64,000 nucleotides of DNA, from the NCBI RefSeq assembly GCF_053078305.1, contig NZ_CP166879.1. One strand, given 5' to 3'. The notes beneath the pieces were generated by a model. It saw only the letters and a program-made list of their open reading frames with translations. It made no database searches and was not told where the DNA came from. Made by a program: the position numbers and the translations under genes. Numbering within the stretch: the first letter of the stretch is position 1; the number at the start of each line of letters is the position of its first letter. This document shows, one piece after another, positions 2,072-38,200 of this stretch.

Positions 2072-2102
2072 AAAGACTACACACAGCAATTACATGGATG
2101 AT

Positions 2103-2297
2103 TCAGTTGGTATTGTGCGTACGTGGTACCACAAGGTTGAAGCGGACACGCCAGTGCGTTGCAATGGTATGCAGGAAAGCACCACATCCAGGGCAGTGCT
2201 CATAACATTCGTTGATTTGGTATCGTTTTGGCTTTGGTGTCTGAAGCTGTGTTTGGCAAGCAGGGCATTCACCTTTGAGCGGTTTATATGTTTTCAC
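2103..2297 (-). CDS. Small zinc-ribbon protein, 64 aa (two CxxC pairs)
   Basis: GTG start with GAGGA 6 nt upstream. CPAC and CPGC motifs lie 27 residues apart. A terminator follows. Confidence 0.55.
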   Translation of the reverse strand: MKTYKPLKGECPACQTQLQTPKPKRYQINECYEHCPGCGAFLHTIATHWRVRFNLVVPRTHNTN

Positions 2298-2580
2298 GCC
2301 GTTTCCTCATTCAGTTCACTTTGGTGGTTCGGCGGCTTCGACTTGTATCAGTAGGCAGTGCTTCGCCGCACCCCAAAGGGAACTTACTGACCCGTATTGC
2401 CGACATCCTGTCCCGCCACGGTCCCGACGCATGGTTTAGAGTCGCGCCGTTCGACTTGTGGCTAAAGATACAATTTGAGTTGTATTGTGTAAACCACAAA
2501 CGTGGTATTTTGTGGGGTGTGAATACTACTTTATTGATATTTAAGTGAATTTAATTTGTAAGACTTTACAAATGGGGTAA

Positions 2581-2600
2581 GGGAGGCTGTTACGCCTCCC
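2581..2600 (-). terminator. GC-rich stem-loop just downstream of the repressor gene (weak terminator candidate)
   Basis: GGGAGGC-tgttac-GCCTCCC is a perfect 7-bp stem. There is no strong U-tract on either strand. Confidence 0.35.
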
Positions 2601-2619
2601 GATATTTACGGTGGGAATA

Positions 2620-3243
2620 CTAACGTTTACGGCGGTAAATACGGTGTTCGATCATTACACCTATGATCTGTAAGTTCATATCTGCACTACGAAAAATAGG
2701 GTAATCAGGATTTAGGGGGATTAATTCAAAGTCGTCGATGCCGATTCCTAATGGACGGTATTTTTTAAATGTAGCTTCGTGACCGTCGTTTTTGGCGACA
2801 ACAAACTCCCCTGGTGCAGGACATAGTTCAGGATCGATGATAACAATGTCTCCTTCTTTAAACTCTGGTTGCATGCTGTCGCCATCAATACGTAATGCGA
2901 AGCATGTTTCTGGAATGTCAGAGTCTGCCAAAATATATTCAAATTCCCCTGTCAGATCTGTTATGTCTCTTGCTTCTGTAAGCTCTCCTGCCTGAACGTA
3001 ACTTAATATAGGTATGCGTCTGGTACTTATCTCCGCGAGAGGCATAATATTTTTACCGTTCAGTAGCCAGTCTGGGCTACATTTCAAGGCCTTAGCCAGA
3101 TCCAGAAGATTGCGTGGCTTTCTGGTTCGTCCACTTTCGATGGATTCTATGGATTGTTGGCTAACCCCTGCAGAATTCGCTACTTCCACTTGAGTCATTC
3201 CTAATTCCAAACGACGTGCTTTAAAACGGGCTGCGAGAGACAT
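2620..3243 (-). CDS. CI-like prophage repressor (XRE-type HTH plus S24 LexA-like autopeptidase domain)
   Basis: The N-terminal HTH is MTQVEVANSAGVSQQSIESIESG. The C-terminal S24 signature is IDGDSMQPEF with a downstream FKKY lysine. I chose ATG 3243 (MSLAARF...) because AAGGA precedes it. The track start at 3294 adds 17 unlikely residues. The gene is divergent from a cro-like gene. Confidence 0.85.
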   Translation of the reverse strand: MSLAARFKARRLELGMTQVEVANSAGVSQQSIESIESGRTRKPRNLLDLAKALKCSPDWLLNGKNIMPLAEISTRRIPILSYVQAGELTEARDITDLTGEFEYILADSDIPETCFALRIDGDSMQPEFKEGDIVIIDPELCPAPGEFVVAKNDGHEATFKKYRPLGIGIDDFELIPLNPDYPIFRSADMNLQIIGVMIEHRIYRRKR

Positions 3244-3363
3244 GGGATTAGTCCTTCTGGGTTGTATTAATGTGTATACCCACATTAAAAACAATTTTTG
3301 TTGTATTTGACAAACCTCATTTGTTGTTGCTAAATACCACTAAAATTGTATGAGGTGAAAGCA
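3244..3363. promoter_or_regulatory. Immunity switch region: divergent promoters and candidate operators
   Basis: TTGACA (3307-3312), an 18-nt spacer and TAAATA (3331-3336) face cro. There is a 22-bp palindrome TTAATGTG-N6-CACATTAA at 3267-3288. GTTGTATT is repeated at 3261 and 3300. Confidence 0.5.
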
Positions 3364-3576
3364 ATGACCTTAGCGACCCGAGTAAAAGAACGACGTAAAG
3401 AACTCAAAATGACGCAAGTTACGTTGGCTGAGCTCACAGGAGTGAGCCAGCAGGCAATAAACAGAATTGAAAGTGGTGTTATTGCTCGGCCACGTTATCT
3501 TCTTGAAATGTCTATAGCATTGGATTGCGACCCTAATTGGCTGTTGTATGGCTCACAAAACGATAAAAAGGCTTAA
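3364..3576 (+). CDS. Cro-like HTH regulator
   Basis: The HTH is MTQVTLAELTGVSQQAINRIESG. GAGG precedes ATG 3364. The gene is divergent from the repressor and is first in the rightward operon. Confidence 0.75.
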   Translation: MTLATRVKERRKELKMTQVTLAELTGVSQQAINRIESGVIARPRYLLEMSIALDCDPNWLLYGSQNDKKA

Positions 3577-14730: not shown

Positions 14731-15672
14731 ATGATTACTTTTGATCAGGCAACCGTTGACAGCTCTGGTGCCTTTCTCATCGGGGAGCTGGAGCGACTCG
14801 ACCAGACGCTGAACCTGCCACTGGTGGGGTACACCTGGACCCGCGATATTCAGTTGCGTGAAGATGTCTCCATCGCAGATGACATTTCCAGCTGGACGAA
14901 TACCAGCTTCGCCGCTGCGGGTACTGGTGCAAATCCGAATGGCAAAAACTGGGTAGGCAAAGACTCAACCGCTATTGCTGGCGTGAACGTGGATATCGGC
15001 AAATCCGGTAACCCGATGAACCTGTGGGGGATGGAACTTGGCTGGACGGTCATAGAATTGCAGGCTGCTCAGCAGATCGGACGCCCGATTGATACGCAGA
15101 AGTATGACGGGATGCAACTGAAATGGCAGATGGATAACGATGAACAGGTATATGTTGGCGATTCCGCATTAAACCTGAAAGGTCTTGTTACCCTGGACGG
15201 CGTGCCTGTCAACAACGCTGCCAAAACGTGGGCAACCTCAACACCGGACGAAATCCGCGCAAGCATTAACCAGGTGCTGTCTGATGCGTGGGCCGCTTCC
15301 GGTTACTCTGTGGTTCCGCGTGATTTGCTGATCCCGCCTGAGCAGTTTGCTCTGTTGTCCAGCATCATCGTTTCATCTGCGGGTAACCAGTCCCTGTTGA
15401 CGTACCTTCAGACCAACACCATCAGCTATCACCAGAACGGTGTTCCGCTGAATATCCGCGCGGTTAAATGGCTGAAAGGCCGTGGTGTGGGGAATAAGGA
15501 TCGCATGGTTGCGTACACCAACGATAAAAAATACGTCCGCTACCCGCTGGTTCCGCTTCAGAGCGTGCCGGTGCAGTATCGCGGTCTGTATCAGATCGTC
15601 ACTTACTACGGCAAGCTGGGTGCGGTTGAGCCAGTGTACAAAGAAACCATTTCGTACGTTGATGGCATTTAA
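14731..15672 (+). CDS. Major capsid protein (DUF2184-type from memory)
   Basis: 313 aa in the canonical position. A strong stem-loop follows. Confidence 0.7.
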   Translation: MITFDQATVDSSGAFLIGELERLDQTLNLPLVGYTWTRDIQLREDVSIADDISSWTNTSFAAAGTGANPNGKNWVGKDSTAIAGVNVDIGKSGNPMNLWGMELGWTVIELQAAQQIGRPIDTQKYDGMQLKWQMDNDEQVYVGDSALNLKGLVTLDGVPVNNAAKTWATSTPDEIRASINQVLSDAWAASGYSVVPRDLLIPPEQFALLSSIIVSSAGNQSLLTYLQTNTISYHQNGVPLNIRAVKWLKGRGVGNKDRMVAYTNDKKYVRYPLVPLQSVPVQYRGLYQIVTYYGKLGAVEPVYKETISYVDGI

Positions 15673-15679
15673 CAGCCAC

Positions 15680-15700
15680 ATGGCCCCCTGGCGGGGCCAT
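15680..15700 (+). promoter_or_regulatory. GC-rich RNA stem-loop after the capsid gene (no U-tract)
   Basis: ATGGCCCC-ctggc-GGGGCCAT is a perfect 8-bp stem, 8 nt after the capsid stop. Confidence 0.5.
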
Positions 15701-15713
15701 TAAGGATGACCCG

Positions 15714-15935
15714 ATGGCAAAAAATAATGCAGTAATACACGTACATACCCCGTTTGTGCTCACGCTTCCCGACGGTTCACGGCGCGAGTTTGTTAAAGGC
15801 CGTCATGCTGTGGAGGAAGACGTTGCCACGCACTGGTTCACTCGTGCGCACGCGGAAGTATCCGTTGGCAAAGCCACAGACGCGCGTAACGAGGTAAAAA
15901 ATGCCAAAGAATCAAAGTCTGCCAGCGGTAAGTGA
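15714..15935 (+). CDS. Small head-associated hypothetical protein
   Basis: 73-aa ORF in the operon. No motif recognised. Confidence 0.45.
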
Positions 15936-22886: not shown

Positions 22887-23951
22887 ATGTCACAGAACTG
22901 GATGAGACATTTCGAGCTGCAGCTTGTGGACGGGAACGGTCAGGGAATTGAGCTAAGTGATTTCAAAGTCACCTTTACGATCGACTGGTTCAACATCAGC
23001 AGCGCGTCCCGGGTAGGGACTATCAAAATTTATAACCTCTCGGCAGATACTGTGAACCGAATTACCGGGCAGGAGTTTTCGAAAGTGCGTCTGATTGCCG
23101 GTTACGACGGTATCGCGCCGGAGGTGTCAGCAAGCGACGTAGGGACCGTGCGGGGAGTTGACGCGGCGGACGTGGGCCAGAGAGATGGCCGCAACTACGG
23201 ACTGATTTTCAGCGGTGAAATTCGCTACTCGGTCACAGGAAAAGACAGTCCGGTTGATACCTACGTCCTGATTCAGGCAGCAGATACTGATCTGGCTTTT
23301 GCCACCAGTATAACCTCACAGACGCTGGCTGCCGGTTACACGGTCGCTGATGTGAACCGTGCGCTGATGAAAGACTTCGAAGCCAAAGGCGCGACCGAAG
23401 GCCTGACGCCTGAAATGCCTGCTACTGTATTCCCCCGGGGGCGGGTACTCTTTGGCATGACGCGGCATCTAATGGATAACGTAGCCGGACAATGTGGCGC
23501 AACATGGCAATTCGTGGACGGTCAGCGCCAGATGGTGGCGAATAACGAATATGTTCACGAAGCGATTGTGCTCAACAGCGCTACCGGGCTTATTGGCATG
23601 CCGCAGCAGACTATCGGTAACGGCGTAAACGTCCGCGCGCTTATTAATCCGAACATCCGGGTTAACGGGCTCATTCAGCTGGATCAGGCTTCCGTCTATC
23701 GTACCGCGTTGTCGAACAACGATATTGCGATGGCTGGTGGTCAGATCACCGACCAGAACACGGACGGAAATATCACGCTCAGCGGCACCACATCGCAGCC
23801 TGCCTGCATCGCAACGGATGGCGTTTATATTGTGCGCGGGATTATGTACACTGGCGACACAAGGGGCCAGGCGTGGTACATGGATATGATGTGTGAAGCG
23901 CGTGGCGCGGCGGATCTTGTTTCCTCATCAGCGAGGGAAAGAGGGCTTTAA
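22887..23951 (+). CDS. Baseplate hub protein (Mu gp44 / P2 gpD-like position)
   Basis: 354 aa. It lies after the tape-measure-proximal genes and before the spike gene. Confidence 0.55.
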   Translation: MSQNWMRHFELQLVDGNGQGIELSDFKVTFTIDWFNISSASRVGTIKIYNLSADTVNRITGQEFSKVRLIAGYDGIAPEVSASDVGTVRGVDAADVGQRDGRNYGLIFSGEIRYSVTGKDSPVDTYVLIQAADTDLAFATSITSQTLAAGYTVADVNRALMKDFEAKGATEGLTPEMPATVFPRGRVLFGMTRHLMDNVAGQCGATWQFVDGQRQMVANNEYVHEAIVLNSATGLIGMPQQTIGNGVNVRALINPNIRVNGLIQLDQASVYRTALSNNDIAMAGGQITDQNTDGNITLSGTTSQPACIATDGVYIVRGIMYTGDTRGQAWYMDMMCEARGAADLVSSSARERGL

Positions 23952-24286
23952 TGAAACGGTTATGTTTGGCGTTAGTTATGATGGTTACTGCTCCGGCGAT
24001 GGCTGCAATTCAGTGCGGCAACTACACGATGACCGGTGACGGAATGACTGTTATTAACGGTGAAACTGTCACATCACAGAAGATAAAATTTCTGGGAAAA
24101 GATGGTGACTATTCAAACATGAAAATGGACATGGGCCTGATGCCTTCCCGTGATGGTAACAATTACGGCTTTGAGTTTGTGAAACGTAACGGAAAAGCTT
24201 TCCTGAACGTCCAGCTGCTGCAGAACAGCATGGACGCGCCGAAAATCATTGGATCTTTCCCGTGTAAAAAAGTGAGCAGCAAGTGA
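23951..24286 (+). CDS. Secreted small protein, 111 aa (cargo gene, function unknown)
   Basis: Sec signal peptide MKRLCLALVMMVTAPAMA|A. The mature part is beta-rich with two Cys. GC is lower than in the flanking genes. It is inserted between the hub and spike genes. Confidence 0.6.
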   Translation: MKRLCLALVMMVTAPAMAAIQCGNYTMTGDGMTVINGETVTSQKIKFLGKDGDYSNMKMDMGLMPSRDGNNYGFEFVKRNGKAFLNVQLLQNSMDAPKIIGSFPCKKVSSK

Positions 24287-24795
24287 CAGTTGATGATGAT
24301 CCTTTGAATTCATTTCAAGACCCTGACTTTCAGGAACTTCTCGGCGGAATTGATATTACTCTTGTTATAAGGTTTTTTAATTATTTTTCGCGTTTCGAAT
24401 ATGCGTTAAAAAGAATTAATTTCAAAAAAACTGATCGTAGAAATTATCTAATCGGTGCTGACTGGAGCCGCTACGCTACTGATGATACGCGGCCTTTATA
24501 TCCTACTGGAAATAGAAATGTCGATAGGGCAGTTGAGTATCTATGTCAGCAACCTGTGAAGCAGCAGAGGCATGATTTTTCGTGGGAGGATAAACCTCCA
24601 ATCGAACCTCATTCTCTTGCTGAAGCATTAAAGCAGATCCCGTATATAAGAAATAATCTCTTTCACGGCGGGAAGTATTTACGTCCCGACCCCGTTCGTG
24701 ATGAAAAGTTATTGAAATACTCTATTTATTTGATGCAGTTGTGTTTGATAACTGATAATCAGCTTTCTGAATACTTTAATACTATCCACCGATAG
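24283..24795 (+). CDS. HEPN-motif protein, 170 aa (cargo gene; candidate RNase/abortive-infection effector)
   Basis: IPYIRNNLFHGGK contains R-N-x-x-x-H, the HEPN Rx4-6H signature. The gene is AT-rich (14 G+C in 24361-24420). It uses a GTG start overlapping the upstream stop, so the start is uncertain. A strong terminator follows. Confidence 0.5.
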   Translation: MTVDDDPLNSFQDPDFQELLGGIDITLVIRFFNYFSRFEYALKRINFKKTDRRNYLIGADWSRYATDDTRPLYPTGNRNVDRAVEYLCQQPVKQQRHDFSWEDKPPIEPHSLAEALKQIPYIRNNLFHGGKYLRPDPVRDEKLLKYSIYLMQLCLITDNQLSEYFNTIHR

Positions 24796-24813
24796 TCATT
24801 CTTCATGAGATAA

Positions 24814-24837
24814 AACCTGCCACCCGGCGGGTTTTTT
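24814..24837 (+). terminator. Rho-independent terminator closing the cargo insert inside the late operon
   Basis: AACCTGCC-ACCC-GGCGGGTT followed by TTTT. Confidence 0.75.
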
Positions 24838-27837: not shown

Positions 27838-28292
27838 TGGCGAAAAATGACTTTAAAGCGTTTGCAACGGATCGAAATGCCAATGTTATATCGCAGGAGG
27901 AATGGGAAGCGTTGCCCGCGCTTTTATCCGGATTTACAGCAGGGAAAGCCTCCAGTGCGCAAGTCAATAAGGTTATTCGGCAGGTCAGCTTTATTGCTGC
28001 AGCTCTGGCCCAGTTTGTAAGTGATAAAACGCAACGGGATGTGCTTGATAATGGTGATCTGCCCGGTTTTGTTGAATTGCTGGGATCGGGGTTTGCTGTT
28101 GAATACCTGAGCCGCAAGAATCCGTTTGGTGATATCAAATCGGATGGCACGGTGAAAACGGCTCTCGAAAACCTTGGTTTGGGAGAAGAGCACAGCGTTA
28201 AGCCGGGTTGTTTCTGCCTGCGTCAGCTTCCGCCCGGCCTGCAATTTCAGCTGAATCAGACTAATGGAAGCCATAGCCGCATCAATCAGTGA
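27837..28292 (+). CDS. Tail fibre, constant N-terminal part (Sc). In this orientation it is not joined to a receptor-binding domain.
   Basis: ATG 27837 overlaps the upstream stop (TGATG). The sequence is sensible up to ...KTALENLGLGE at the crossover site (28162-28187). It then reads antisense tfa DNA (EHSVKPGCFCLRQLPPGLQF...) to a stop at 28292. Confidence 0.65.
   Translation: MAKNDFKAFATDRNANVISQEEWEALPALLSGFTAGKASSAQVNKVIRQVSFIAAALAQFVSDKTQRDVLDNGDLPGFVELLGSGFAVEYLSRKNPFGDIKSDGTVKTALENLGLGEEHSVKPGCFCLRQLPPGLQFQLNQTNGSHSRINQ
28162..28187. repeat. Invertase crossover site, left (hix/gix/pix-like, 26 bp)
   Basis: CTCTCGAAAACC-TT-GGTTTGGGAGAA. Its reverse complement shares TTCTCCCAAACCAA with the right site. 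It resembles hix TTCTTGAAAACCAAGGTTTTTGATAA. Confidence 0.7.
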
Positions 28293-28715
28293 CTGGCGCC
28301 GTACTTCTGCCGCGTCTACTGCGGCGTTATGCTGTGCCTCAGTGTCGGTCACCCATTTCTCACCATCCCATTTATCGTATGACGTTAACGGGGCGATAGT
28401 GGTTGTATTTTCAGGGTAATCACCCGGAACTGTGATTTCTTTTGATTCTCCTGTTTCGGTGCTATAGACGATTTCACCGCGATGGTCTGGCACATATTCC
28501 CATGAGTTAAAATCTGCAGAACGGCAAATTGCATAACCAGCTTTATATGAGCCAGGAGCATCTAAACAGGAACATGCCGGGATACCGACACCCACAGCAA
28601 GATATTCAGTTGATGTGGAAATATATTCCCGTGTTTCACCATCATAATTATAAACGGTAATGTCTCCGGCCTTTGTGGCGATGAGTTCATTATTTAATAC
28701 AGCTTTACTTATCAT
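28188..28715 (-). CDS. Tail fibre assembly protein (Tfa/U-like), native C-terminus missing
   Basis: MISKAVLNNELIATKAGDITVYNYDGE...KLTQAETTRLNAVL is Tfa-like. The usual last ~25 residues (xYxxxVxxVDxSxAPDIxWP) are absent. The ORF instead runs through the crossover site into antisense fibre DNA down to 27924. Confidence 0.6.
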
Positions 28716-29183
28716 GCAGCCCTCACAATATAATTAAAGGCGATGTTACGGGAGCGGGTTTCAGATGCTGTGCGAACTGAGCGAGATGCGTCGAATGTCC
28801 AGTTATAAGCGCCATAACCCTCAATAATTTCGGCTTCCTTTAGACCTGTAGATAATACTTGCCCATGTTGACTAAATGGCCCTGAACTAAGTACGTCTCT
28901 AAAAAGCTGGGTACGCCCAAAAGAACCAACAATATTCTGAATTGCATCATTCTGTGCAGATAATAAGTTACGACCAGAGTCAATCCCGCGCCCATCATCC
29001 CAGCCACGAATAAATTCACCGCGTAAATCTGGTAATTTTAATGTTGGGTAAGCCTTTGCCAGATTTGGGTACTTTTCAGAAGAAAATACTGCTCCGTTAC
29101 ATTTTAGCCACCCCATTGGCGGAGTGGCTGAAGGCCACGGAACAGGCACACCAACCGGTAATGCAGAGCCTTCTCCCAAACCA
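28712..29183 (-). CDS. Tail fibre variable C-terminal cassette (tail-collar, receptor-binding), with no start of its own
   Basis: GLGEGSALPVGVPVPWPSATPPMGWLKCNGAVFSSEKYPNLAKAYP...LPDLRGEFIRGWDDGRG is the phage tail-collar motif. It begins inside the right crossover site in the same GLGE frame as Sc, so inversion would fuse it to Sc. Confidence 0.7.
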
Positions 29184-29196: not shown

Positions 29197-29250
29197 TGCA
29201 GAAATAACGAGCAAATGGCATCATTCCTGCTTTTGTCAGGGAGATCTACC

Positions 29251-29805
29251 ATGCTTATTGGCTATGTACGCGTATCAACAAATGACCAGAATACCGATCT
29301 ACAACGTAATGCGTTGAACTGTGCAGGATGCGAGCTGATTTTTGAAGACAAGATAAGCGGTACAAAGTCCGAAAGGCCGGGACTGAAAAAACTGCTCAGG
29401 ACATTATCGGCAGGTGACACTCTGGTTGTCTGGAAGCTGGATCGGCTGGGGCGTAGTATGCGGCATCTGGTCATTCTGGTTGAGGAGTTGCGCGAACGTG
29501 GCGTTAATTTTCGCAGCCTGACGGATGCTATTGATACCAGCACACCGATGGGGCGTTTTTTCTTTCATGTGATGGGGGCCCTGGCTGAAATGGAACGAGA
29601 ACTGATTGTTGAACGAACAAAAGCTGGACTGGAAGCTGCTCGCGCACAGGGACGAATTGGTGGACGTCGTCCCAAACTTACACCAGAACAATGGGCGCAG
29701 GCCGGGCGACTAATTGCATCAGGAGTTCCTCGCCAGAAGGTGGCGATCATTTATGATGTTGGCGTATCGACTTTGTATAAGAAGTTTCCGGTCGGAGATA
29801 AATGA
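29251..29805 (+). CDS. Serine DNA invertase (Gin/Pin/Cin/Hin family)
   Basis: The sequence MLIGYVRVSTNDQNTDLQRNAL...GRRPKL... ending in a C-terminal HTH matches the family, including the catalytic Ser in YVRVSTNDQ. GGGAG lies upstream of ATG 29251. Confidence 0.9.
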   Translation: MLIGYVRVSTNDQNTDLQRNALNCAGCELIFEDKISGTKSERPGLKKLLRTLSAGDTLVVWKLDRLGRSMRHLVILVEELRERGVNFRSLTDAIDTSTPMGRFFFHVMGALAEMERELIVERTKAGLEAARAQGRIGGRRPKLTPEQWAQAGRLIASGVPRQKVAIIYDVGVSTLYKKFPVGDK

Positions 29806-29885: not shown

Positions 29886-30533
29886 CTATGAAGCTAATTT
29901 GTTTAATTTCATTTGTAGTGACTTTACTTCTTGGTCGATAATGTCGAATCCCTTATTGACAGCATCTCTTAGCTCTGCATCAATATTTTTTATCCCTTGA
30001 GCATAATCTACCATTATATTTATTTTTGCATCATGTAATCTCTTATACATGGTTTTATTTTTGTTATTGTCTGCCATGCCAATAAGGATTTTTTCATAAT
30101 CCTCAATGAGTTTGTTGTTTCCTTTAAATGATTGTATTAATGAGCGTGAATATGTGTATATGTTAATTATTGAGTCTCTAGCAGAATCATTTAGTTTTGC
30201 AATGACATTCGCATTTTGCTCATAGAATGTGAAATTATCATCCCCTACAGGGAATGTGAGAATCAACATTTGTCCCGGTTTTATATTATCAATGTGTGTT
30301 TTCATCCTTTTATTATATAAATTGATTAGGGTGAAAACTTCTCCCTTAACTCCTTTTAATACTGAAAGTTGTAATTCAAGGGATTCTCTTTCTGTCTCTA
30401 CTTTAGACAGCTTAGCTTGTTGGGTAACTCCTTTTAGGGTAAACCATCCGCCAATAAGAGTACCAACTAGAGCTGTGAGGGAGGAGGATAACCATCCAGG
30501 TATGCTATTTAAAAGATTACTAAATTCACTCAT
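29886..30533 (-). CDS. Membrane-anchored coiled-coil protein, 215 aa (cargo, function unknown)
   Basis: N-terminal hydrophobic helix LSSSLTALVGTLIGGWFTL, then QQAKLSKVETERESLELQLSVLKG, then an Asn/Lys-rich C-terminal domain. Very low GC (14 G+C in 30001-30060). Confidence 0.6.
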   Translation of the reverse strand: MSEFSNLLNSIPGWLSSSLTALVGTLIGGWFTLKGVTQQAKLSKVETERESLELQLSVLKGVKGEVFTLINLYNKRMKTHIDNIKPGQMLILTFPVGDDNFTFYEQNANVIAKLNDSARDSIINIYTYSRSLIQSFKGNNKLIEDYEKILIGMADNNKNKTMYKRLHDAKINIMVDYAQGIKNIDAELRDAVNKGFDIIDQEVKSLQMKLNKLAS

Positions 30534-30593: not shown

Positions 30594-30935
30594 CTACTGG
30601 AGAAGGCTACCTGAACTTCGATCTATTCCTGCATCCATATAGTTGATGGTCTTCTGGAGCTCTTCGATTAGGGCAACAGCTTTTGCTCGAGAAATGCATA
30701 TTAGTTGATCCGGAAATTCTTGTAAGGGCCAGTTTGGTATACAGGCCATGTTATCAATGAAGGATGCAGACAAGTAAACTTCATTGGTAACCAGAGAATA
30801 GCTTACCTCAAAATTGGTGAGTTCCGGCAAACTGCTAACGTTTGACTCTTTTCTGCGCATAATATTATCCATGACTGTAATTATGTACAGGTGATGGTCT
30901 TCAATTTCGAAGAGGGAGTCAAGGGGGAGTCTCAA
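30594..30935 (-). CDS. Small acidic protein, 92-113 aa (cargo, function unknown)
   Basis: Low-GC ORF upstream of, and co-oriented with, the 215-aa gene. The start is ambiguous (TTG 30935 or ATG 30872), and neither has a good SD. Confidence 0.45.
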   Translation of the reverse strand: MRLPLDSLFEIEDHHLYIITVMDNIMRRKESNVSSLPELTNFEVSYSLVTNEVYLSASFIDNMACIPNWPLQEFPDQLICISRAKAVALIEELQKTINYMDAGIDRSSGSLLQ

Positions 30936-31062
30936 ATGAACCGTTATAGAAAAAGGGGGGGGATCTTTGTGTTGCTGAACTTATGCAAAATTTTTTTGCA
31001 CCATAAATCCAACAACACATTCAATAACACATTGCTGTATCACTATGAAAATAAATGTGTTT

Positions 31063-31119
31063 TTATTTGATTTCACACATATCACAATTGATGCATTTTT
31101 TAGTGATTAACAGCGCCAT
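31063..31119 (-). pseudogene. yfhL: 5' fragment of ferredoxin gene yfhL, truncated by the prophage junction
   Basis: Hand translation gives [18 protein letters not shown]-stop. The first 16 residues match my memory of K-12 YfhL ([24 protein letters not shown]...) and the CxxCxxC start of a 4Fe-4S motif. The frame then diverges into AT-rich phage DNA. Confidence 0.6.
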
Positions 31120-31174
31120 AAGGAAACTCTCAAAACAACACAAACCGGGCGGGCATTATACGCGCATTCTTTAC

Positions 31175-32023
31175 TCAGACCAGTTTTTTCACCAGCGCTT
31201 CACTATGACGAATACGTTCTGGTGCCAGTTCCAGATCCTGCTGAATCAGCGCAATGAACAGCAAATCCGTTAACATTCCCTGCGCGTGACAAGCAGAGAT
31301 TGAAGCACTGTTTGTCGCTTGTTCTTCGGCAATGGTATACAGGCAATGAGAAGCACGCTGTTGCAGGGCATTGGGAGTAAAGCCGGTAATCGCCAGCACT
31401 TTTCCGCCCACTCGCAGCATCTCATCTGCCGCCAGGTTTAACTCGCGTCGTACACCGGTGTAAGAAATGGCTAATAACAGATCGTCAGGGGACGACGCCT
31501 GTACGGTAGCGAGTAGCGCATGCATATCGCGCACTGCGGCAGCATTGAAGCCAATCTTCATCAGCTTCCAGGCAAAGTTTTGCGCCACCAGACCCGAAGC
31601 GCCAATACCGGTCAGAATTATCCGCCGCGCAGAGCGCAACATTGTTACGCATTCATGCAGTTTCTCTTCACTATTAACGTTTAGCGTTGCGTACATAGCG
31701 GCAGTATTTTCTTTAATCAGTTTTTCGCCGACCAGCCGTAACGGATCATCACCGCGGATTTGGTTATGAATGGGCACGGAGGGCGATTCCGGCTGGCTTG
31801 CCAGCGCTTCACTCAACGCCAACTTAAGCGCCGGAAAACCTTTATAGCCGAGTTTTTGCGCGAACTTCACGACGCTGGACTGACTGACTCCGGCTTCGTT
31901 GGCCAGTTGCTGAGAGCTTAAATGGCGCGCCGTATCAGGTTGTAGCAGCAGATAATCCGCCAGTTTTTTATCACTCTGGGCAAGCCCCTGGTAACGCTGA
32001 CGGATACGAAGTAAGCCGTTCAT
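31175..32023 (-). CDS. yfhH: RpiR/MurR-family transcriptional regulator (HTH plus SIS domain)
   Basis: 282 aa from MNGLLRIRQRYQGLAQSDKKLADYLL. This matches K-12 YfhH in size and synteny. The track start at 32095 is too long. Confidence 0.9.
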   Translation of the reverse strand: MNGLLRIRQRYQGLAQSDKKLADYLLLQPDTARHLSSQQLANEAGVSQSSVVKFAQKLGYKGFPALKLALSEALASQPESPSVPIHNQIRGDDPLRLVGEKLIKENTAAMYATLNVNSEEKLHECVTMLRSARRIILTGIGASGLVAQNFAWKLMKIGFNAAAVRDMHALLATVQASSPDDLLLAISYTGVRRELNLAADEMLRVGGKVLAITGFTPNALQQRASHCLYTIAEEQATNSASISACHAQGMLTDLLFIALIQQDLELAPERIRHSEALVKKLV

Positions 32024-35242: not shown

Positions 35243-38200
35243 ATGATGGAAATTCTGCGTGGTTCGCCTGCACTGTCGGCATTCCGAATCAACAAACTGC
35301 TGGCACGTTTTCAGGCTGCCAGGCTCCCGGTTCACAATATTTACGCCGAGTATGTCCATTTTGCTGACCTCAATGCGCCGTTAAACGATGATGAGCACGC
35401 ACAACTTGAACGCCTGCTGAAATATGGCCCGGCACTCGCCAGCCACGCCCCGCAAGGCAAACTCCTGCTGGTGACCCCGCGTCCTGGCACCATCTCTCCC
35501 TGGTCTTCGAAAGCGACCGATATTGCCCATAACTGCGGGCTACAACAGGTAAACCGCCTTGAGCGCGGCGTTGCTTACTATATAGAAGCCGGTACGCTGA
35601 CCAATGAACAATGGCAGCAGGTTACCGCTGAACTGCACGACCGCATGATGGAAACGGTCTTTTTTGCTTTAGATGATGCAGAGCAGTTGTTTGCCCACCA
35701 TCAACCGACTCCGGTTACCAGCGTTGATTTGCTGGGGCAGGGCCGTCAGGCGCTGATCGACGCTAACCTGCGTCTTGGCTTGGCTCTGGCGGAAGATGAA
35801 ATTGACTATCTGCAGGATGCTTTCACAAAGCTTGGTCGTAACCCGAACGACATCGAGCTGTATATGTTCGCTCAGGCGAACTCTGAGCACTGCCGCCACA
35901 AAATTTTTAATGCCGACTGGATTATCGACGGTGAACAGCAGCCGAAATCGCTGTTCAAGATGATCAAAAATACTTTCGAAACCACGCCAGATCACGTTCT
36001 CTCTGCTTATAAAGATAACGCCGCCGTAATGGAAGGTTCTGAAGTGGGCCGCTACTTTGCTGACCACGAAACGGGCCGCTACGATTTCCATCAGGAACCG
36101 GCGCATATTCTGATGAAAGTCGAAACTCACAACCACCCGACGGCGATTTCTCCGTGGCCGGGCGCGGCGACCGGTTCCGGCGGCGAAATTCGTGATGAAG
36201 GCGCCACCGGACGCGGCGCGAAGCCGAAAGCGGGTTTGGTTGGTTTCTCCGTTTCCAACCTGCGAATTCCTGGCTTCGAACAGCCGTGGGAAGAAGATTT
36301 CGGTAAGCCTGAGCGCATTGTCACCGCGCTGGACATCATGACCGAAGGCCCGCTGGGCGGCGCGGCGTTTAACAACGAATTTGGTCGTCCGGCACTGAAT
36401 GGCTACTTCCGTACTTATGAAGAAAAAGTGAACAGCCACAACGGCGAAGAGCTGCGCGGTTATCACAAACCGATCATGCTGGCGGGCGGGATCGGCAACA
36501 TTCGCGCCGATCACGTACAAAAAGGCGAGATCAACGTCGGTGCGAAACTGGTCGTTCTCGGCGGCCCGGCAATGAACATCGGTCTTGGCGGCGGAGCGGC
36601 GTCTTCCATGGCGTCAGGTCAGTCTGATGCCGACCTCGACTTTGCTTCCGTACAGCGCGACAACCCGGAGATGGAGCGTCGCTGCCAGGAAGTGATCGAC
36701 CGTTGCTGGCAGCTTGGTGATGCCAACCCAATCCTGTTTATCCACGACGTCGGCGCTGGCGGTCTTTCTAACGCGATGCCGGAACTGGTGAGCGACGGCG
36801 GGCGCGGCGGTAAATTTGAACTGCGCGATATTCTAAGCGACGAACCGGGCATGAGCCCGCTGGAAATCTGGTGTAACGAATCCCAGGAACGCTACGTGCT
36901 GGCGGTTGCTGCCGATCAATTACCGCTGTTTGACGAACTGTGTAAGCGTGAGCGCGCACCCTACGCGGTGATTGGTGAAGCGACCGAAGAACTGCATCTT
37001 TCTCTGCACGATCGTCATTTTGATAATCAGCCGATCGATCTGCCGCTGGACGTCCTGCTTGGTAAAACGCCGAAGATGACCCGCGATGTACAAACGCTGA
37101 AAGCGAAGGGCGATGCGCTGGTCCGTGAAGGGATCACCATTGCAGACGCGGTGAAACGCGTACTGCATCTGCCGACCGTGGCGGAGAAAACTTTCCTGGT
37201 GACCATCGGTGACCGCAGCGTAACCGGCATGGTGGCGCGCGATCAGATGGTGGGGCCGTGGCAGGTGCCGGTCGCTAACTGCGCTGTCACTACCGCCAGC
37301 CTCGACAGCTACTACGGTGAAGCGATGGCGATTGGCGAGCGTGCGCCGGTTGCGCTGCTGGATTTCGCCGCCTCTGCCCGTCTGGCGGTCGGTGAAGCGT
37401 TAACCAATATTGCCGCAACACAGATTGGCGATATCAAACGCATTAAACTTTCCGCCAACTGGATGGCGGCGGCAGGCCACCCTGGTGAAGATGCGGGCCT
37501 GTATGAAGCCGTTAAAGCCGTGGGCGAAGAGCTTTGTCCGGCGCTGGGCCTGACGATCCCGGTGGGTAAAGACTCTATGTCGATGAAAACCCGCTGGCAG
37601 GAAGGTAACGAAGAGCGCGAAATGACGTCGCCGCTGTCGCTGGTGATTTCTGCATTTGCCCGCGTGGAAGATGTACGTCACACCATCACGCCGCAGCTTT
37701 CTACCGAAGATAACGCACTGCTGCTGATTGATTTGGGCAAAGGCAATAACGCGCTGGGCGCAACGGCGCTGGCGCAGGTTTATCGTCAGCTTGGCGATAA
37801 ACCGGCAGATGTACGCGATGTCGCGCAACTGAAAGGCTTCTATGACGCGATTCAGGCGCTGGTTGCACAGCGTAAGCTGCTGGCGTATCACGACCGCTCT
37901 GATGGCGGCCTGCTGGTAACGCTGGCGGAAATGGCCTTTGCTGGTCATTGTGGCATTGACGCTGATATCGCCACTCTGGGTGACGATCGCCTGGCGGCGT
38001 TGTTTAACGAAGAACTGGGTGCGGTGATTCAGGTTCGTGCCGCTGACCGTGAAGCGGTCGAATCCGTACTGGCACAGCATGGGCTTGCTGATTGCGTCCA
38101 TTATGTTGGGCAGGCGGTTTCCGGTGACCGTTTTGTGATTACCGCCAATGGGCAGACTGTATTCAGCGAAAGCCGCACTACGTTGCGTGTCTGGTGGGCA

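Follow-up and report, generated by a model that had tools for sequence, protein, structure and literature searches.

The DNA analysed here, a window of 64,000 nucleotides from contig NZ_CP166879.1 (NCBI RefSeq assembly GCF_053078305.1), contains the integrase-distal end (attR) of a ~43 kb prophage that uses a tyrosine integrase, and the native start of the ferredoxin gene yfhL is stranded at this end as an orphan. In the reading that we prefer, to which we assign a probability of about 85%, a gene start carried by the phage rebuilds a full-length chimeric YfhL at the integrase end of the prophage. The parts of it that are shown are the anatomy of the junction, the core of the attachment site, the attP sequence, the full-length chimeric reading frame in related lysogens and the coding constraint on the phage-borne codons. 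All positions refer to the window unless another sequence is named. The junction joins the following features:

31066-31119, minus strand: native start region of yfhL left as an orphan: 16 codons of the host gene, then a phage-derived I-K-stop (from translation and alignment with attB)
31175-32023, minus strand: yfhH, host flank gene encoding a MurR/RpiR-family regulator (RefSeq annotation of identical DNA in many genomes)
1-31071: right-hand ~31 kb of the prophage (collinear with the prophage of strain O103:H2 12009)

The 16 native residues of the fragment are 100% identical to residues 1-16 of K-12 YfhL, a protein of 86 aa, as the original prediction had it when it recognized in them the native N-terminus and the start of the CxxCxxCxxxCP motif. 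Its placement of a prophage junction inside yfhL was likewise borne out: in a BLAST comparison with the K-12 yfhH-yfhL region, similarity extends from window position 35786 down to exactly 31072, with phage DNA to the left. On the right side of the junction yfhH, pgpC (yfhB), tadA and mltF follow each other in K-12 order, and the fragment lies downstream of yfhH at a K-12-like distance of 55 bp. The fragment extends over no more than residues 1-16 and cannot function as a YfhL-family ferredoxin alone; tblastn of the 64-kb window found no pieces of yfhL other than codons 1-16. A search of 5426 complete E. coli genomes with a 701-bp query spanning the attR junction gave 123 genomes with at least 80% coverage, among them O103:H2 12009, O55:H7 CB9615 and ETEC H10407. 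This recurrence marks a reproducible, site-specific junction and excludes a chance match.

The window prophage is collinear with the prophage of O103:H2 12009 (locus L001, ~42.7 kb) at 94-99% identity, with window position 1 corresponding to position 35161 of L001; the closest prophage in the complete-genome collection shares 99.0% identity with that of the window. By this collinearity the integrase and attL of the window lysogen would lie ~9.8 kb beyond position 1, which agrees with the earlier expectation of a second prophage end outside the window. In O103:H2 12009 the gene for a 465-aa tyrosine-type integrase is divergently oriented and located 214 bp from a complete yfhL CDS (WP_000054752.1). 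The integrase is named tyrosine-type recombinase in RefSeq and matches Pfam PF00589 with 28 bits (cut-off 27.1) and phrog_1 with E=6e-26, and candidate catalytic residues were located by eye (R in ITGVRP, R in MCRKF, H in LHHS, Y in AEHY); searches against the NCBIfam models and, by sequence, against solved structures gave no match.

The attL of O103:H2 12009 reads ATG TCT TTA CTA ATT ACT AAA CGC TGT ATT AAT TGT GAT ATG TGT GAA, after which host CCC GAA TGC CCG follows. The chimeric YfhL encoded there comprises 86 aa, differs from K-12 YfhL only by A2S and K8R, and matches the NCBIfam YfhL equivalog NF033683 (2[4Fe-4S] ferredoxin) with 135 bits, the cut-off being 86. Among the matches listed, yfhL is annotated under the integrase-junction match in 40 of 40 genomes. 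With a full-length yfhL at attL in O103 and in these 40 lysogens, the insertions do not count as gene-disrupting in the sense of leaving the cell without a full-length target. The original prediction had named two outcomes, an inactivated yfhL or a remainder of the gene at the other prophage end; the second is seen in the relatives, with the correction that their other end carries a complete 86-aa yfhL rather than a remainder. An intact yfhL contiguous with the fragment, which would contradict that prediction, does not occur in them either, the intact copy being located ~42.7 kb away at the other junction.

For the window lysogen, the left junction is expected to consist of the integrase, ATGTCTTTACTAATTACTAAACGCTGTATT, the core and CCCGAATGCCCG in this order, so that the left end would run from the integrase over ~214 bp into ATGTCTTTACTAATTACTAAACGCTGTATTAATTGTGATATGTGTGAACCCGAATGCCCG, continuing as an ORF of 86 codons. 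We infer from the sequence relationship to O103 that the window lysogen has such a left end with an intact yfhL; since this junction falls outside the window, the intactness of yfhL in the window strain is extrapolated from its relatives.

The attachment site and the phage genes next to it are located as follows:

31072-31089, minus strand sequence AATTGTGATATGTGTGAA: 18-bp common core, encoding N11-C12-D13-M14-C15-E16 (four-way att alignment)
30965-31071: P' arm, contiguous with the integrase-side arm in the attP contigs L004 and L005
30594-30860, minus strand: phage ORF1, 88 aa, member of the function-unknown family phrog_17793 (PHROG match, E=1.3e-43)
29886-30533, minus strand: cargo ORF2, 215 aa (from the ORF list; a hypothetical protein in O103)
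29215-29805: Gin/Pin-like DNA invertase

The four sequences aligned were attB (K-12), attR (window), attL (O103:H2 12009) and attP (two IMG/VR viral contigs). The core, which occurs a single time in the window, at 31072, coincides with yfhL codons 11-16 and thereby with a part of the first CxxCxxCxxxCP 4Fe-4S motif. Judged from the alignment, strand exchange must fall within these 18 bp. The earlier position of attR at about 31060-31075 thus caught the phage-side edge of the core and has to be replaced by 31072-31089. The predicted attP junction was found as an exact and contiguous stretch of 32 nt in both viral contigs (L004 and L005), and L004 carries the invertase, ORF2, ORF1, attP, the integrase and a helicase in this order on one DNA; the contiguous attP in these contigs means that the excised or free form of the phage is real. 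Candidate arm-type repeats of the sequence TGTGTT(G) are present in two copies in the P arm, where they are conserved across genera, and in four copies of both orientations in the P' arm (at 30968 and 31056 on the plus strand, and as AACACA at 31014 and 31026). The P' arm also holds the AT-rich palindrome TGCAAAAAAATTTTGCA.

Several further phage sequences were considered as sources for the attachment site. A megablast of the integrase and P arm against the phage collection gave no match. The junction is also matched by vB_EcoM-606R2, 611R5 and 683R1, which are recorded as 'phage'; of these, 611R5 was inspected and proved to be a predicted prophage with yfhH, pgpC and tadA of the host still attached, so that it provides no true attP. 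Salmonella phage SEN34 has ORF1 in common with the window prophage but a different integrase and is therefore uninformative for the att site. A side observation concerns the native yfhL leader, which at 31126-31139 (minus strand, host 5' UTR) holds GGTTTGTGTTGTTTTG and there resembles the phage P-arm repeat GCGGTTTTGTGTTGCTGG (TGTGTTG motif); this likeness may be due to chance, to an accessory integrase site in attB, or to a trace of the origin of the phage-borne yfhL mimic.

The integrase/att module is portable between phage types. STEC1590, a published Stx2b lysogen (PMC12029490), carries a lambdoid prophage at the same chromosomal site with the integrase, P arm and core of the window-type prophage; on its yfhH side the same orphan yfhL start, core and ~107-bp P' arm (window 30965-31071) are found, followed by divergence into lambdoid tail-fibre DNA. 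Beyond the att arms the two prophages differ, the Stx2b prophage being lambdoid with other cargo, whereas the window prophage is of the myovirus type with an ORF1 matching the Brunovirus SEN34. The integrase-side junction was detected in 159 of the 5426 complete E. coli genomes, which is more than the 123 with the window-type right end. With its myovirus-type tail module and a Gin/Pin-like invertase near the end, the prophage superficially resembles the right end of Mu, and the junction could be regarded as a one-off disruption without an att site, caused by Mu-like transposition or illegitimate recombination. The chance that a non-specific insertion of this kind took place is negligible: the junction is identical in 123 genomes from many lineages, the 18-bp core is common to attB, attP, attL and attR without a target-site duplication, a tyrosine integrase is located at the other end, no transposase is annotated in the O103 prophage, and a lambdoid Stx2b prophage uses the same integrase/att module. 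A Mu-type insertion in particular is refuted by the fixed insertion point and the common core.

Relatives of the integrase (58-99% identity) were compared at 17 genome loci from more than 12 genera of the Enterobacterales, including Kluyvera, Citrobacter, Shimwellia, Sodalis, Pantoea, Symbiopectobacterium, Providencia, Serratia, Erwinia, Raoultella, Escherichia and Shigella. At 15 of the 17 loci a full-length yfhL starts ~215 bp from the integrase. Locus L016 (Raoultella) has the integrase relative in another context without an adjacent yfhL, and L017 (E. coli ECMA0423) has the core together with a yfhL copy containing many frameshifts. The integrase match ends at residue 366 both in L017 and in L018 (Shigella flexneri SFBU1023), and the chimeric yfhL of the latter encodes an altered C-terminus (…MHARIKF); either the two loci are remnants in decay or their assemblies are of low quality. 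The N-terminus of native YfhL reads MALLITKKC in E. coli, Salmonella and Klebsiella, while the chimeric protein, in its MSLLITKRC form, was encountered on at least 1000 public contigs.

The phage-borne codons carry a protein-coding signature. Between the native start (window allele) and the phage-borne start, the first 30 nt contain 11 differences upstream of the core, by which seven codons are changed, five of them synonymously and two conservatively. When 10-11 random substitutions were placed in the 27 nt of codons 2-10 by simulation, two or fewer amino acid changes in combination with the lack of a stop codon resulted in 6e-5 to 2e-4 of the trials. Across 15 integrase-linked loci, the phage-borne codons 2-10 show pairwise differences per site of 0.19, 0.07 and 0.38 at codon positions 1, 2 and 3, respectively, and codons 11-20 vary at position 3 only, whereas the 60 nt upstream of the phage-borne codons are evenly divergent (0.36-0.47). 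All 15 loci retain an ATG or GTG start at an unchanged position. The third-position bias could in part stem from the capture of a yfhL orthologue in a different host, without selection within the phage.

Tyrosine integrases generally bind imperfect inverted repeats that flank the overlap region, and the segment of phage/host similarity directly adjoins the core on its left side. It might therefore have been kept for core-site binding by the integrase, with the chimeric ORF as a by-product of no value to the host. We hold this to be very improbable as the explanation, because a constraint from DNA binding would not track codon phase, whereas the differences observed are mostly located at third codon positions, the start is retained at every one of the 15 loci, and the DNA just upstream diverges freely. 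Integrase binding and coding do not exclude each other.

According to the preferred reading, in which yfhL is rebuilt, the temperate phage integrates by tyrosine-recombinase site-specific recombination at the core within yfhL codons 11-16. Its attP contributes, just upstream of the core, an own ATG and nine further codons that mimic yfhL (16 codons together with the core), and in the free phage this mimic forms a mini-ORF. At the integrase end, as seen in the relatives, the phage-borne start is joined to host codons 17-86 to form a complete YfhL with A2S and K8R, while the native start with the native upstream region is stranded at the far end, where it reads two phage codons and then a stop. 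Since the phage supplies a substitute start and N-terminus, yfhL is rebuilt in these lysogens and not split. The codons of the invariant Fe-S ligands would offer a target that is conserved across the Enterobacterales, and the replacement of the gene start would avoid the cost of losing a low-potential ferredoxin; in P. aeruginosa the orthologous protein is essential (PMC2984482).

Two sequence elements bear on the expression of the genes at the junction:

31155-31160, minus strand: perfect TATAAT, candidate native -10 element, 36 nt upstream of the native yfhL ATG (read from the sequence)
30873-30892: LexA-box-like palindrome GACTGTAATTATGTACAGGT of the form CTGT-N8-ACAG (motif scan)

The simple promoter scan made no call at the native TATAAT, where a -35 match is lacking; promoter activity of the yfhL 5' region is mentioned at second hand in a passage of one paper (PMC2984482). 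In the lysogen the TATAAT points into the prophage, towards ORF1 and ORF2, and the stretch from the yfhL remnant to ORF1 contains no predicted intrinsic terminator. For the chimeric gene, the simple scan of the yfhL strand of the phage arm returned no consensus sigma-70 promoter, a weighted hexamer scan across genera returned no convincing or positionally conserved one, and the ribosome-binding region appears weak by eye. In the preferred reading, the chimeric gene would be transcribed from phage DNA and would yield a working ferredoxin.

These expression data also bear on the possibility that yfhL is inactivated, either by deletion or mutation of the left end, or because the rebuilt gene is silent after the loss of the native promoter and of co-transcription with yfhH. 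The window holds only codons 1-16 of yfhL, the native upstream region with its perfect TATAAT stays with the orphan fragment, and a convincing promoter was not found upstream of the chimeric gene. The literature adds that yfhL is named among the genes disrupted by phage integration in a passage of the survey by Bobay et al. 2013 (PMC3603311) and that the gene can be deleted in E. coli (PMC12047441, a paper that also describes YfhL-dependent electron donation to NifH). We nevertheless consider inactivation unlikely, as yfhL is annotated under the integrase junction in each of the 40 listed genomes, and as the conservation of the phage-borne start, frame and residues, with third-position-biased divergence in more than 12 genera, is hard to explain for a protein that is never made.

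The LexA-like box precedes the annotated start of ORF1 (30860) by 13 nt and adjoins an upstream in-frame ATG (30872-30870). It matches the consensus at 14 or more of 20 positions, which holds for no other CTG-N10-CAG site of the 64-kb window, shuffled sequences giving ~0.15, and the SEN34 homologue of ORF1 is preceded at the same position by a box of different sequence (L023 3755-3774). These features suggest that ORF1 may be SOS-controlled. By analogy it is possibly an antirepressor, for which Tum of phage 186 provides the comparison as an SOS antirepressor. A second LexA-like box was noticed in the P arm outside the window (L001 44819-44838), between the integrase and the yfhL mimic. It reads CACTGGATCAACATACAGTA in E. 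coli and CTGT-N8-ACAG in other genera, and occupies the same position in L006-L010, L014, L017-L019 and L021. This box overlaps the -35 element of a candidate promoter (TTGATA-18-TAAACT, up to 12.6 bits) that is directed towards the integrase and conserved in position, and the overlap suggests SOS-controlled int expression. The two are the only LexA-like boxes in the 42.7-kb prophage, and both flank attP. A reciprocal swap of control is conceivable, by which the chimeric yfhL would come under the phage arm with its conserved LexA box and the yfhH/yfhL upstream region would be aimed at ORF1 and the cargo gene, but we regard it as a quite doubtful proposal. If true, the host redox gene and prophage induction or cargo expression would be wired differently in lysogens than in the free phage.

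The original prediction recommended yfhL for recording as an att site; as such it had already been published. Besides its listing in the 2013 survey (PMC3603311), passages of two papers from 2023 and 2025 give yfhL as the insertion site of Stx2b prophages in O112:H8 STEC (PMC10675304, PMC12029490). There the site is described as integration into the yfhL coding sequence, and it is called newly identified in the 2023 paper (PMC10675304). The passages on yfhL in these three sources (PMC3603311, PMC10675304, PMC12029490) make no mention of a rebuilding of the gene. The published accounts, as far as these passages go, thus speak of disruption or of insertion into the coding sequence, whereas reconstitution was observed in the lysogens examined here. 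A passage by Bobay et al. also describes a hotspot at which the 3' end is duplicated and the ORF length remains unchanged (PMC3603311). A Morganella paper that names yfhL together with an integrase was set aside, as yfhL serves there only as the label of a neighbouring gene.

The closest known analogue is the dusA-associated integrases (DAI), which are found in prophages and genomic islands (Farrugia et al. 2015, PMC4482086); the assignment of the yfhL phage to a mechanism of this kind is made by analogy of the att anatomy, not by the integrase sequence. In both systems a tyrosine integrase is directed at a conserved motif within the 5' part of a protein-coding housekeeping gene, the element brings along a 5' end by which the ORF next to the integrase regains its full length, the former 5' end becomes the outer boundary of the element, and the family extends over many genera (PMC4482086). 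The hallmarks of the dusA type are present here as an in-frame substitute start and N-terminus (O103 attL; 15 of 17 loci) and as the orphan original 5' end (window). Unlike the DAI, the yfhL phage targets a ferredoxin gene instead of dusA, and the replaced segment of yfhL includes the metal ligand C9, with C12 and C15 encoded by the core.

Phage 21 and e14, which integrate into icd (isocitrate dehydrogenase), are similar to the yfhL phage in that the insertion lies inside a protein gene and a diverged duplicate of the gene end keeps the ORF length. The arrangement is a mirror image: in icd the 3' end is replaced and the native promoter and start are retained, whereas in yfhL the phage substitutes the 5' end together with its start codon and the control region upstream. 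Elements of active lysogeny, such as Listeria phi10403S in comK and skin and SPbeta of B. subtilis, are not known to leave a functional copy of the target while integrated. They share with the yfhL phage the location of the prophage inside a protein gene and the restoration of the native gene by precise excision, but differ from it in that a full-length yfhL copy is present in the lysogen.

Neither the yfhL site nor the kind of mechanism is new: an invariant coding motif is targeted and the gene repaired, as in dusA and icd. What the analysis usefully adds is the precise extent of the core and arms, an attP shown as contiguous DNA, the change of status of yfhL from disrupted to reconstituted with A2S/K8R, and the association of an integrase family with yfhL across more than 12 genera. 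The presence of a prophage junction within yfhL is not to be equated with loss of the ferredoxin, as related lysogens receive a phage-borne replacement start. Since a passage of the 2013 survey lists yfhL as disrupted, pangenome or core-genome counts that rely on this label may be slightly wrong. Lysogeny at yfhL, whether present or past, is simply recognized by the N-terminus MSLLITKRC in place of native MALLITKKC. As the Stx2b toxin phages use the same integrase/att module, the exact core and arms are useful for typing prophage insertion sites in STEC.

The prophage part of the window comprises modules for replication (VapE), lysis, head, myovirus-type tail, baseplate and tail fibre, the invertase and cargo. 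Counted from the junction, ORF1 comes first among the prophage genes, and it is oriented like the yfhL remnant; no match was found in Pfam, PADLOC or NCBIfam, and its homologue is SEN34_31 of Salmonella phage SEN34, a Brunovirus with a different integrase. The product of ORF2 has one N-terminal hydrophobic segment and is otherwise probably helical, and gave no match in Pfam, PADLOC, PHROGs or NCBIfam. In relatives the slot between the invertase and ORF1 is occupied by an 846-bp hypothetical gene (611R5) or an O-acetyltransferase (SEN34) and looks like a moron or cargo hotspot.

The tail-fibre C-terminal/assembly segment at 28189-28762 is inverted relative to the O103:H2 12009 prophage and adjoins the invertase; the position of an inverted segment beside a Gin/Pin-type invertase points to an invertible host-range switch in the other orientation. 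The O103 invertase is annotated as frameshifted. The segments 2100-3566, 15647-15897, 23915-24815 and 28762-29170 are without a counterpart in the O103:H2 12009 prophage and represent mosaic replacements in an otherwise collinear phage. A G8 homopolymer at 30955-30962, reading C8 on the gene strand, is situated in the interval from the P' arm to ORF1; it has a length of 6, 8, 9 or 10 in otherwise near-identical genomes and is interrupted in 611R5. This length variation could be due to phase variation or to assembly error. In the C9T6 variant of IMG/VR contig L004 an upstream ATG is in frame with ORF1, which extends the product to 142 aa.
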